The notes under the pieces are model-generated. The model was not told the DNA's origin. It made no database searches and worked only from the letters and a program-made list of their open reading frames with translations. Positions 2,997 through 4,080 of a stretch of DNA of 8,124 nucleotides are shown here, piece after piece (the first letter of the stretch is position 1; each line of letters starts with the position of its first letter). A program made the translations under genes and the position numbers. Source of the DNA: a virus (Duplodnaviria > Heunggongvirae > Uroviricota > Caudoviricetes); IMG/VR virus record IMGVR_UViG_2713896783_000023; one strand, given 5' to 3'.

Positions 2997-3040
2997 AATC
3001 TACAATAAAAAACTGTTTTTGTGTCAACAGTTTTTAATTG
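2997..3040 (-). promoter_or_regulatory. Operator palindrome (CAATAAAAAACTGTT-8 nt-AACAGTTTTTAATTG, 3003-3040) overlapping a leftward promoter (-35 TTGACA at 3027..3022; candidate -10 TAGATT at 3002..2997)
   Basis: Near-perfect 15-bp inverted repeat read directly. Same half-site as the palindrome at 4038-4074. Consensus -35 hexamer lies in the palindrome centre on the minus strand. Spacer to the -10 is 19 nt, so the -10 call is tentative. Confidence 0.5.
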
Positions 3041-3049
3041 TTGTTTTGG

Positions 3050-3075
3050 ACAAAAAAATCCCTCGAAAGAGGGAG
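3050..3075 (-). terminator. Putative intrinsic terminator after the toxin gene (stem CCCTC/GAGGG, 4-nt loop, followed by U7 on the minus strand)
   Basis: Plus strand reads aaaaaaatCCCTCgaaaGAGGG (3052-3073); on the minus strand this is a hairpin then UUUUUUU. Stem is only 5 bp, so strength is uncertain. Confidence 0.4.
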
Positions 3076-3092
3076 TATGAAAATTGTTCAAC

Positions 3093-3380
3093 TCAGATAG
3101 AGAAGGGAAATTGTCGCCGAGAATGTGTCACGCTTACAATCTCAATGCTTGAAGCAGCTACTCTGTACAGGATTATGTAGTTAGGGTGGGTCACGATCTC
3201 TCTCAATCCAGAAACCCGTTCGCTTGGTGGATATAAGTACGGATGCTCAGATAGAGGTAATACCGATGTTTCAATGCGTATTTTTAGTCTACGTGCTGCC
3301 GGTGGGTTCTCCTTGGCGATGTAAGTTATGATCTGGCGCAAATCATCGCGAGCAGACGGTAGCCATAAAATGGGTAACAT
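3093..3380 (-). CDS. parE: ParE-family toxin of a type II toxin-antitoxin system (95 aa), ParE2-like
   Basis: Sequence MLPILWLPSARDDL...HPYLYPPSERVSGLREIVTHPNYIILYRV...IEIVSVTHSRRQFP matches the ParE/RelE fold pattern and my recollection of ParE2 from E. coli O157 prophages. Start overlaps the antitoxin stop (TAATG). Confidence 0.85.
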   Translation of the reverse strand: MLPILWLPSARDDLRQIITYIAKENPPAARRLKIRIETSVLPLSEHPYLYPPSERVSGLREIVTHPNYIILYRVAASSIEIVSVTHSRRQFPFSI

Positions 3381-3571
3381 TACTCGCTCTTGTTAGTTAC
3401 AGCAATTTGAGCAATAAGATTTTCCATTTCAGCCATTACCTCGTCATGTGGAATTGCGGGGCGAGTGTCTGCAAGGCTTGACGTTACTTTAGTGCGCAAC
3501 CATTCGTTGTAACTGTTTTCTTGTTCGGTAGTTTCGAATTCTGAAACTATCGGAGAAAGGGCTGTACCCAT
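3380..3571 (-). CDS. paaA2: PaaA2-like antitoxin (63 aa) partnering the ParE toxin
   Basis: 63-aa ORF immediately upstream of and overlapping parE. Sequence (...SPIVSEFETTEQENSYNEWLRTKVTSSLADTRPAIPHDEV...) resembles PaaA2 as I recall it. GGAG SD 8 nt before the ATG. Confidence 0.7.
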   Translation of the reverse strand: MGTALSPIVSEFETTEQENSYNEWLRTKVTSSLADTRPAIPHDEVMAEMENLIAQIAVTNKSE

Positions 3572-3598
3572 GGCATAACTCCTCTTCTTGTACTGTGG

Positions 3599-4000
3599 TC
3601 ACGCCCGGCGGCTTTTTTGTGCCGCCAGCCACCTAGCAATGGTTTCTTCCATTGATTTTTTCTTGTCTTTGATTTCTTGAAGCATTTTTTCTTGGTCTTC
3701 CTCAGGAAACGCACTAAAAGCTTGGAGCAGTTCGCGTTGGCGAGGACCAATTTTCATCGTGTCAGGGGTGAAAATTTGCTCACACTCTTCAGGAGGCAAT
3801 AAAAACCAATGCAATGGATGCCCTGAAACCTCAACCAGTTTATCCAAACTTGAGGCTTTAGGTGTAGCCTTACCGCTGACCCATTGTTGAACAGTTTGTT
3901 GTGTCACACCAATTCTACGGGCAAGCTCAGCCTGGCTCCATCCAGTTTCCTGAAGAAGCTTGCTGATTCTGTACATAGATACTTCTAGGGCGCTCATCAT
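3599..4000 (-). CDS. HTH (XRE-family) transcriptional repressor, DicA/PaaR2-like (133 aa); acts as prophage repressor and first gene of the three-component TA operon
   Basis: Clear helix-turn-helix (WSQAELARRIGVTQQTVQQWVSG). No S24 peptidase (LexA-like) C-terminal domain. Divergent from the Cro-like gene with a palindromic operator between. Weak or absent SD, so the mRNA may be leaderless. Confidence 0.8.
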   Translation of the reverse strand: MMSALEVSMYRISKLLQETGWSQAELARRIGVTQQTVQQWVSGKATPKASSLDKLVEVSGHPLHWFLLPPEECEQIFTPDTMKIGPRQRELLQAFSAFPEEDQEKMLQEIKDKKKSMEETIARWLAAQKSRRA

Positions 4001-4037
4001 TATTCAATTTTACAGGTAAATACTGTTAAAAGCATCA

Positions 4038-4080
4038 CAATAAAAAACTGTTGATTGCATACAGTTTTTTATTGTAGGCT
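4038..4080. promoter_or_regulatory. Operator palindrome CAATAAAAAACTGT-9 nt-ACAGTTTTTTATTG (4038-4074) in the divergent repressor/Cro-like intergenic region, overlapping a candidate rightward promoter (-35 TTGATT 4051-4056, -10 TAGGCT 4075-4080)
   Basis: Perfect 14-bp inverted repeat read directly. Same half-site as 3003-3040. Lies between divergent start codons at 4000 (-) and 4109 (+). Confidence 0.55.

Follow-up and report, generated by a model that had tools for sequence, protein, structure and literature searches.

The immunity switches that resemble the locus described here are those of the prophages CP-933P and Qin, the Gifsy prophages and the phages 434 and lambda. In CP-933P, footprints of the repressor PaaR2 and the Cro-like protein YdaS were obtained on the region between paaR2 and ydaS, and these proteins repress the promoters PR and PRM as well as PL933P, which is located beyond parE2; a PRE-like promoter is activated in a YdaT-dependent manner, and the switch has been shown to be bistable (PMC8630535). 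In Qin, DicA represses dicBp and dicC from operators that resemble the left (OL) and right (OR) operator regions of lambda, activates its own gene without being subject to RecA cleavage, is relieved by the antirepressor Rem, and forms a bistable switch together with DicC (PMC10448788, PMC3441716). For the Gifsy repressors, relief comes from antirepressors under LexA control (PMC10448788), and phage 434 contains operators of the type ACAATNNNNATTGT, a 14-bp dyad, with three copies in OR and three in OL (PMC1636474). Here, we analyzed a stretch of 8,124 nucleotides, referred to as the window, from a virus of the Caudoviricetes (IMG/VR record IMGVR_UViG_2713896783_000023), with a focus on two palindromes at positions 3003-3040 and 4038-4074. 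In an original prediction made from the sequence alone, these were taken for one palindromic operator occurring twice, through which a single repressor would control a division-inhibition operon and a divergent promoter region, with a ParE toxin module in between.

The window was collinear with prophage Sp4 of Escherichia coli O157:H7 Sakai (NC_002695.2, approximately 1,164,442-1,172,487; 99.99% to 100% identity), which is annotated as a 'lambda-like phage', and positions 2850-4400 were 100% identical to the corresponding region in the O157:H7 strain F6294. In the Sakai annotation, the 133-amino-acid protein encoded between the palindromes is a 'phage repressor protein' (ECs_1069), and the ParE protein is ECs_1067. 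E. coli O157:H7 contains about a dozen lambdoid prophages, among them Sp4, which we take to be the Sakai counterpart of CP-933M. The window covers the immunity region of Sp4/CP-933M, and its repressor and toxin-antitoxin genes most probably constitute the paralogous paaR1-paaA1-parE1 locus. The characterized paaR2-paaA2-parE2 operon is located on CP-933P/Sp12, and 'a homologue' is located on CP-933M (PMC8630535). Identity with the paaR2 locus was considered and rejected: PaaR2 starts with MQKKE and uses GTTTAGTAA repeats (PMC8630535), and because the repressor in the window lacks this start and the operators differ, the locus was read as the paaR1-type paralog. Judged from sequence comparisons, the two palindromes very probably represent OL and OR of the lambdoid immunity switch of Sp4/CP-933M, containing sites that are read by its repressor.

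The locus was arranged in the same order as that of CP-933P/Sp12, with the genes for the repressor, PaaA and ParE, the terminator, OL and PL, the leader, ydfA and dicB, and the divergent ydaS-ydaT genes. Common to both were also a leaderless repressor gene (predicted for the window), operators at OR as well as at PL downstream of parE, the YdaT site TTGATTN6AATCAA, a homologous C-terminal domain in the repressor, and PaaA and ParE proteins that were 70% and 67% identical, respectively. The differences concerned the N-terminus of the repressor, which starts with MQKKE in PaaR2 whereas the window encoded an unrelated 434-like DNA-binding domain with the helix QQTVQQ, and the operators, which are 18-bp GTTTAGTAA-type repeats in CP-933P and were 15-bp ACAR-N7-YTGT sites in the window. 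Furthermore, CP-933P has been described with four inverted repeats and three operators, whereas the window contained three operators in OR and two in OL. We consider the locus to be a heteroimmune example of a well-described arrangement with the logic of lambda, 434, Qin, and CP-933P; the concepts are unchanged, and the operator code is a new detail and no new principle. The operator code and the promoter layout of the Sp4/CP-933M switch are here defined by computation only. The switch would decide when the ParE toxin module, the DicF small RNA, and the DicB division inhibitor are expressed.

Probable operators in the two palindromic regions

A search with CAATAAAAAACTGT, allowing up to two mismatches, identified four copies in the window, at 3003-3016 (plus strand), 3027-3040 (minus strand, one mismatch), 4038-4051 (plus strand) and 4061-4074 (minus strand), which formed two inverted pairs that corresponded to the predicted palindromes. 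The palindromes are thereby real: 0.12 matches were expected by chance, and four matches were reached in 0 of 200 shuffles. A repeat finder delimited 15-nucleotide arms at 4037-4051 and 4061-4075, which were 100% complementary and separated by a gap of 9 nucleotides, and 21-nucleotide arms at 2997-3017 and 3026-3046, which were 86% complementary and separated by a gap of 8 nucleotides. Compared as 15-mers, the arms were complementary at 15 of 15 positions in OR and at 14 of 15 positions in OL.

It was also noted that each arm is two-fold symmetric by itself (ACAAT-AAAAA-ACTGT). The pattern ACAR-N7-YTGT yielded exactly five matches in the 8.1-kb window, all of which were located within the two regulatory regions (0.53 expected; five matches in 0 of 200 shuffles). 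Three of these 15-bp sites were located in OR and two in OL (Table 1), all with the ends ACA(A/G)T and the consensus ACA(A/G)T-N5-A(C/T)TGT. The copy at 4012-4026 in OR was solitary, with no partner arm, and had been overlooked in the original prediction. The centers of the operators were 25 and 24 bp apart in OR and 25 bp apart in OL, and the spacing of OR1 and OR2 in lambda resembles that of 24 to 25 bp in the window. A position weight matrix (PWM) built from only the Salmonella, Raoultella, Pluralibacter, and Morganella operators that are associated with QQTVQQ helices recovered exactly the five sites in the window, with scores of 18.7 to 19.8 bits, whereas the next best site in the window scored 5.3 bits and the maxima in shuffled windows averaged 9.0 bits. 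There is thus good reason to regard the functional unit as a 15-bp, internally symmetric operator present in five copies, rather than a 38-bp palindrome present in two.

Relatives of the repressor were collected from E. coli, Salmonella, Raoultella, Pluralibacter, Morganella, and Rahnella, resulting in a total of ten loci from six genera (designated by L-numbers). The Rahnella locus was found by a scan of genome contigs with a two-sequence alignment, which returned two loci, one of which was useful. In nine of the ten loci, 15-mers were located at approximately -75, -51, and -26 from the start codon of the repressor gene, the exception being L008, which has a different operator type. Eight of the nine contained a further pair of 15-mers 0.5 to 1.3 kb downstream, placed around TTGACN, and no such downstream pair was found in L015. 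Neighboring operators in the relatives were complementary at only 7 to 14 of 15 positions and their centers were 21 to 25 bp apart, whereas the 15-bp unit and its internal symmetry persisted. The long palindrome was perfect in this prophage only. In the Rahnella locus L004, a third good operator-like 15-mer, ACACATTTAACGCGT, was observed at 4906-4920, about 0.9 kb beyond the OL pair; it could be a chance occurrence or mark an extra regulated promoter.

These patterns bear on the possibility that each 38-39-bp palindrome is one long operator, the 14-15-bp arms of which serve as half-sites for a single higher-order complex. The full complementarity of the arms in OR and their near-full complementarity in OL would fit such an operator, and a tetramer spanning both arms is conceivable since PaaR2, which has a homologous C-terminal domain, forms octamers (PMC8630535); the result would in effect have the look of two dimers bound cooperatively. 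Nevertheless, we find it unlikely: the third 15-mer stands alone, the complementarity and spacing of the arms vary across loci around a constant 15-bp unit, and the helix-turn-helix domain resembles that of 434, which reads its 14-bp dyad as a dimer (PMC1636474). Because the 15-mers were kept while arm complementarity and spacing were not, independent dimer sites, possibly cooperative, are preferred over one long operator.

That the palindromes are structural or accidental, in the form of A/T-rich terminator hairpins, recombination scars at mosaic joints or LexA boxes, is highly improbable. It is true that the OL palindrome is located right after the parE terminator, that both palindromes border the immunity-specific segment, and that CTGT...ACAG is reminiscent of the ends of a LexA box. 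However, the presence of four copies that are exact or nearly so far exceeds what chance would give, and the relatives retained the 15-mers while losing the potential to form hairpins. A role as hairpin or terminator was rejected, as the true terminator is the G+C-rich hairpin at 3074-3049 and the complementarity of the arms is not conserved. The LexA box was likewise rejected, with pair junctions that read CTGT-N9-ACAG in OR and CTGT-N10-ACAG in OL rather than CTGT-N8-ACAG. No LexA box was found in the window, and the three one-mismatch matches elsewhere were at chance level (2.57 expected).

Table 1. Positions of operators, promoter elements, genes, and RNA features in the window, ordered by coordinate
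Feature	Positions	Strand	Basis and remarks
dicB, cell-division inhibitor	917-1105	-	Pfam DicB, E = 7.5e-39; annotation
DicF small RNA	1369-1420	-	Rfam RF00039, 76.9 bits (gathering score 48)
ydfB	2530-2658	-	RefSeq annotation
ydfA-like gene (DUF1391), first gene of the PL operon	2660-2815	-	Pfam and annotation
Structured leader RNA, about 100 nucleotides, 5' end of the PL transcript	2880-2985	-	Covariation in seven sequences
PL-like -10 element TAGATT (predicted)	2997-3002	-	Positional consensus T (last base of the operator) + ANNNT in relatives
OL operator, promoter-proximal, ACAATAAAAAACTGT	3002-3016		ACAR-N7-YTGT; PWM 19.8 bits; fills the PL spacer, one base shared with the -10 element
PL-like -35 element TTGACA	3022-3027	-	TTGACN between both OL operators in 5/5 QQ-type loci
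OL operator, promoter-distal, ACAGTTTTTAATTGT	3027-3041		PWM 18.7 bits; adjoins the PL -35 element; position kept in L006, L010, L012, L013
Intrinsic terminator TCCCTCTTTCGAGGGA followed by a T run, G+C-rich	3049-3074	-	Ends the repressor-paaA-parE operon; separates parE from OL
ParE-family toxin, probably ParE1	3093-3380	-	Pfam ParE_toxin, E = 2.9e-17
PaaA-family antitoxin, probably PaaA1	3380-3571	-	Pfam PaaA2, E = 5.6e-19
Immunity repressor ECs_1069, PaaR1-type	3599-4000	-	Pfam HTH_3; 133 amino acids
PRM-like -10 element TAAAAT	4007-4012	-	Repressor ATG 7 nucleotides downstream, no Shine-Dalgarno sequence
OR3-like operator ACAGGTAAATACTGT	4012-4026		PWM 18.7 bits; overlaps the PRM-like core; at -26 from the repressor ATG in relatives
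OR2-like operator ACAATAAAAAACTGT	4037-4051		PWM 19.8 bits; beside the weak PRM -35 element, one base shared with the PR -35 element; kept at -51
PR-like -35 element TTGATT	4051-4056	+	TTGAYN at the same place in relatives
OR1-like operator ACAGTTTTTTATTGT	4061-4075		PWM 19.8 bits; within the PR spacer; kept at -75
PR-like -10 element TAGGCT (predicted)	4075-4080	+	18-bp spacer; TAGTCT, TAGTAT, TATTCT or TAATAT at the same offset in relatives
Cro-like YdaS-family regulator	4109-4381	+	Pfam YdaS_toxin; helix QQTVWQ
YdaT-type inverted repeat TTGATTCATGAAAATCAA	4358-4375		0 mismatches to TTGATTN6AATCAA (PMC9986795); spans the ydaT start codon
CII-like YdaT-family regulator	4365-4790	+	Pfam YdaT_toxin; function known from CP-933P (PMC8630535, PMC9986795)

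Repressor, Cro-like protein, and operator specificity

The repressor combines a 434-like helix-turn-helix domain, with the recognition helix QQTVQQ, and a PaaR2/DicA-like C-terminal domain. Among all chains in PDB, the best match to the helix-turn-helix domain was the phage 434 repressor, with residues Q34, Q35, and Q39 aligned on Q28, Q29, and Q33 of 434. The 434-type half-site ACAA(T) was thus found together with a QQxxxQ helix, on a 15-bp operator frame rather than the 14-bp one of 434. In the 434 co-crystal structures, Gln28, Gln29, and Gln33 contact bases and the helix position of Gln33 faces base pair 4; an arginine at this position would favor the G of a C:G pair.

The operator ends in the relatives followed the recognition helices. 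QQTVQQ repressors (the window, L006, L010, L012, and L013) were paired with ACA(A/G)...(C/T)TGT operators, and QQTVQR repressors (L002, L004, and L015) with ACAC...GTGT operators; in L002 and L004 such operators made up OR as well as OL, and in L015 they were observed in OR. The repressors of L002 and L004 were 62% to 63% identical to the protein in the window. The helices of the Cro-like proteins were QQTVWQ, QQTVF- or QQSVSL in the QQTVQQ group and QQ(S/N)VSR in the QQTVQR group. Operator position 4 thereby co-varied with the sixth residue (Q or R) of the recognition helix, not only that of the repressor but also that of the Cro-like protein. Other immunity types repeated their own motif at OR and OL, as was observed for L008, for phage pPE4 with TCAC-N5-GTGA, for Qin with TTAG-N6-CTAA, and for the PaaR2-type locus L020 with an ACTAAAC-type motif. 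We infer that dimers of the repressor, and probably also the Cro-like YdaS, bind the five sites. The same type-specific operator was present at both promoter regions, and the proposal in the original prediction that a single repressor acts on both is well supported by the comparisons.

An alternative is that the sites are recognized mainly by YdaS alone or by a PaaA-ParE complex, the 133-amino-acid protein being minor. YdaS carries a QQTV helix, the footprints of YdaS and PaaR2 in CP-933P cover the same region (PMC8630535), and according to a review citing Hallez 2010, the paaR promoter is partially repressed by PaaA-ParE (PMC4803016). However, the helix of the repressor co-varies with the operator just like that of Cro, PaaA2 has no DNA-binding domain (PMC8630535), and use of the sites by Cro belongs to the preferred model and is no alternative to it. 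Furthermore, the space between the repressor gene and OL was empty or contained unrelated small open reading frames in L004, L006, L010, L012, and L013, in which the operators were unchanged. Since these five relatives retain the operators without paaA-parE, the sites are independent of PaaA-ParE, and autoregulation of the toxin-antitoxin pair was rejected as the reason for their presence. Taken together, we judge it quite improbable that proteins other than the repressor are the main readers of the sites.

The repressor was 28% identical to DicA over 111 amino acids that covered both domains (BLASTP, E = 6e-12), and contained, as in DicA, an N-terminal XRE helix-turn-helix and a short helical C-terminal domain with an ELLxxFxALPExxQ motif. 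It was also about 42% identical to PaaR2 over residues 37-133, with the last 40 residues nearly identical, and over residues 11-111 it shared 31% identity with the Gifsy repressors. A tblastn search of phage genomes identified no close full-length relative, but only matches to the helix-turn-helix domain and Gifsy/DicA-like repressors at about 30% identity. The C-terminal domain with ...LLQxFSAFPE(E/D)(D/E)Q...ARW(L/I)AAQKxRRA is common to the PaaR1-type protein (3599-4000) and PaaR2 (L020, 3991-4362), while no relationship was seen between their N-terminal parts, which read the DNA. A domain swap seems to have taken place, by which heteroimmunity arose and the oligomerization module was retained. 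Sp4 is heteroimmune to CP-933P yet has the same C-terminal oligomerization domain, which matters when cross-talk among co-resident prophages is to be predicted.

No Peptidase_S24/LexA-type cleavage domain was identified in the repressor with Pfam, in line with the original prediction. The further claim that derepression would not be of the LexA/RecA type held for autocleavage and for direct control by LexA, whereas derepression may occur by way of an antirepressor. Like the Gifsy repressors and the repressor of the Qin Rem system, the protein is non-cleavable, and induction, if any, is therefore expected to occur through an antirepressor or switch noise. No antirepressor gene was identified in the window.

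The locus shares with Qin a short repressor without a RecA cleavage site, the presence of the same motif at the repressor (dicA/dicC in Qin) and in front of ydfA-dicF-dicB, and, as predicted for the window, a bistable, RecA-independent switch. The operators differ: the comparison with the dicA/Ob/Oc operators advised in the original prediction set TTAG-N6-CTAA (Oc, Ob) in Qin against ACAR-N7-YTGT in the window, and in Qin, dicA and dicBp are not separated by a toxin-antitoxin pair. The repressor is DicA-like in its working, but heteroimmune. The divergent repressor and cro-like genes, the tripartite OR with multiple operators over the face-to-face promoters PR and PRM, and the second set of operators at PL are those of lambda and 434, and the ACAA(T)/ACAG(T) half-sites and QQ-type helices in the repressor and Cro are those of 434 (PMC1636474). 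Unlike these phages, the window has two sites in OL rather than three, no N gene after PL, and a repressor with a small helical C-terminal domain rather than an S24 autopeptidase with RecA-stimulated autocleavage, which is absent also from DicA, PaaR2, and the Gifsy repressors.

Predicted promoters, leader RNA, and the proposed switch

The 108-bp intergenic region between the repressor and the Cro-like genes contained the three OR operators along with PR-like and PRM-like elements. As had been noted in the original prediction, candidate -35 hexamers were located at both palindromes, TTGACA on the minus strand (3027 to 3022) and TTGATT on the plus strand (4051-4056); they sit in the gaps between the arms, each with one base in common with an arm. 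At PR, the relatives retained TTGAYN-N18-TANNNT, the spacer of which is filled by OR1 in the window, and the -10 elements in the relatives also had one base in common with an operator. The PL spacer was 19 bp in the window compared to 17 to 18 bp in the relatives. At PRM, the -35 element was poor (ATGCTT) and adjoined OR2, while OR3 overlay the core promoter, a layout that is that of lambda, where it serves positive and then negative autoregulation, and is by analogy read in the same way here. TA[AG]AAT followed after 6 to 8 nucleotides by ATG, without a Shine-Dalgarno sequence, was kept in 10 of the 10 loci, and because of this arrangement the repressor mRNA is predicted to be leaderless. The paaR2 mRNA has been found to be leaderless by experiment, as has that of lambda cI (PMC8630535). 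Downstream of parE, a hairpin and T run equivalent to the terminator was present in the Salmonella locus L006.

A structured leader RNA was identified directly downstream of the PL-like promoter, where it is common to heteroimmune prophages and to phages such as Tritos, Evi, and pPE4; it was also present in L002, L006, L008, L012, L013, L019, and L020. The fold, as derived from seven sequences, comprised two hairpins, the first of them long and bulged, which were joined by the invariant linker UAAGUAGCCAGCC. In this alignment, 93.5% of the cells were paired, compared to 24% to 44% in slid controls, and compensatory changes were observed at 7 of 24 pairs, a number reached in 0 of 500 shuffles. 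The leader belonged to no Rfam family, a permissive threshold giving chance matches only, and a blastn-short comparison with the HK022 immunity region returned chance words only, with no sequence similarity to put. The element may act in cis in antitermination or processing, a role that is worth testing because it is located just after PL and no N-like gene is present downstream. The leader of Qin dicBp is without this structured element. In K-12 strains, an unannotated relic that was 93% to 95% identical to window positions 2875-2994 was observed at about 2.45-2.59 Mb, outside Qin.

The site at 4358-4375 likely belongs to a putative YdaT-activated, PRE-like promoter that reads back towards the repressor gene.

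The model that we propose builds on computed features, namely the sites and their geometry, how they are conserved, and how they co-vary with the proteins, while binding, activation, cooperativity or looping, and start sites are inferred. Each 15-bp operator would be read by one dimer of the repressor through its 434-like helix-turn-helix. Bound at OR1/OR2 and at OL, the repressor would shut off cro/ydaT and the division-inhibitor operon and probably stimulate its own operon, repressor-paaA-parE, until high levels lead to occupancy of OR3, which would limit the expression of that operon. The Cro-like YdaS, also with a QQTV helix, would probably compete for the same operators, and with the CII-like YdaT this competition would give a bistable switch. 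Transcription from PL would read through the structured leader into ydfA-ydfB-orf129-dicF-dicB. One repressor would thus probably govern the toxin-antitoxin operon that encodes it as well as the Cro-like gene and the DicF/DicB operon. Looping between OL and OR across the 1.0-kb interval is plausible because PaaR2 octamerizes (PMC8630535) and its C-terminal domain is homologous.

Several points weigh against this interpretation. The three promoters rest on comparative position: a consensus promoter scan of the window reported none of PR, PL, and PRM, with PL missed owing to its 19-bp spacer, which is also suboptimal. The operator frame is 15 bp (5+5+5) in the window and the relatives compared to 14 bp (5+4+5) in 434, so that the contacts in 434 may apply only approximately; a literature search found no paper that lists the contacts given above for Gln28, Gln29, and Gln33. 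The co-variation is based on a few immunity types inherited as blocks, and hence on few independent events, and L014, with the helix QQSIQR, had mixed ACAA/ACAG/ACAC ends and falls off the simple Q/R rule.

Two further readings go beyond the assignment of the sites, and jointly they are put forward only tentatively, as a doubtful pair. First, a single helix residue may set the immunity specificity, such that Q or R at helix position 6, exchanged in the repressor and in the Cro-like protein alike, reads position 4 of the 434-like half-site on the unusual 15-bp frame. If true, an entire bistable switch would have been redirected in nature by the exchange of one residue. The layout provides a clean natural setting in which to study how the repressor and Cro are redirected together by a Q/R exchange in the helix. 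Second, the leader could control whether transcription proceeds into dicF and dicB, either as a protein-independent antiterminator of the HK022 put type or as a processing element. A full-text literature search returned no relevant printed description of the operator sequences or the leader sequence.

Toxin-antitoxin cargo and neighboring features

The gene assignments were backed by Pfam, Rfam, and RefSeq annotation, which bore out the earlier gene calls, including YdfA/YdfB/DicF/DicB after the first palindrome and the repressor and Cro-like genes on either side of the second. The PL operon, which follows the first palindrome on the minus strand, had the order ydfA-ydfB-orf129-dicF-dicB. The repressor gene headed an operon of three genes, as predicted, in the order regulator, PaaA-family antitoxin, and ParE-family toxin, with a gap of 27 bp and an overlap of 1 bp between them and a single terminator after parE (3074 to 3049), just before OL. 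The ParE protein was identical to the crystallized ParE2 (PDB 5cw7) at 62 of 93 positions (67%), and the PaaA protein was 70% identical to PaaA2 of L020 over 56 amino acids. Toxicity of ParE and neutralization by PaaA have been reported for the paralogous pair in O157:H7 (PMC4803016). The combination of a toxin module and dicB in one locus, which had been regarded as new, proved to be present also in the PaaR2-type locus L020, the repressor of which starts with MQKKEIRR and in which parE2 is followed in order by operators, the same leader, DUF1391/ydfA, dicB, DUF1482, and an exonuclease gene.

By analogy with lambda, we regard paaA-parE as passenger cargo in the slot of rexAB. The slot between the repressor gene and OL was variable among the loci (L006, 3577-3915; L010, 3530-3931; L012, 3550-4008; L015, 2453-3506), with paaA-parE in some prophages and unrelated small open reading frames in others, and additionally a YoeB/YefM pair in L015. 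The alternative cargo reading frames of the relatives gave no match with PADLOC and Pfam except for one sub-threshold match to EACC1.

Two minor observations were made in the division-inhibitor operon. An open reading frame of 61 amino acids with CxxC...CP motifs (MPNKPCPACNAL...NCPEH) was located on the plus strand at 1757-1942, antisense to the minus-strand operon between orf129 and dicF; it is 'hypothetical' in RefSeq and had no match in Pfam. Finally, a run of 50 N at 1161-1210 was bordered by a 28-bp duplicate, GATGCGGTGCCTGGTGCCTCCAGGTGAC (window 1133-1238). Because Sp4 in Sakai is collinear without Ns and holds a single copy of the 28 bp, the run is an assembly artifact of a scaffold join with no biological meaning.

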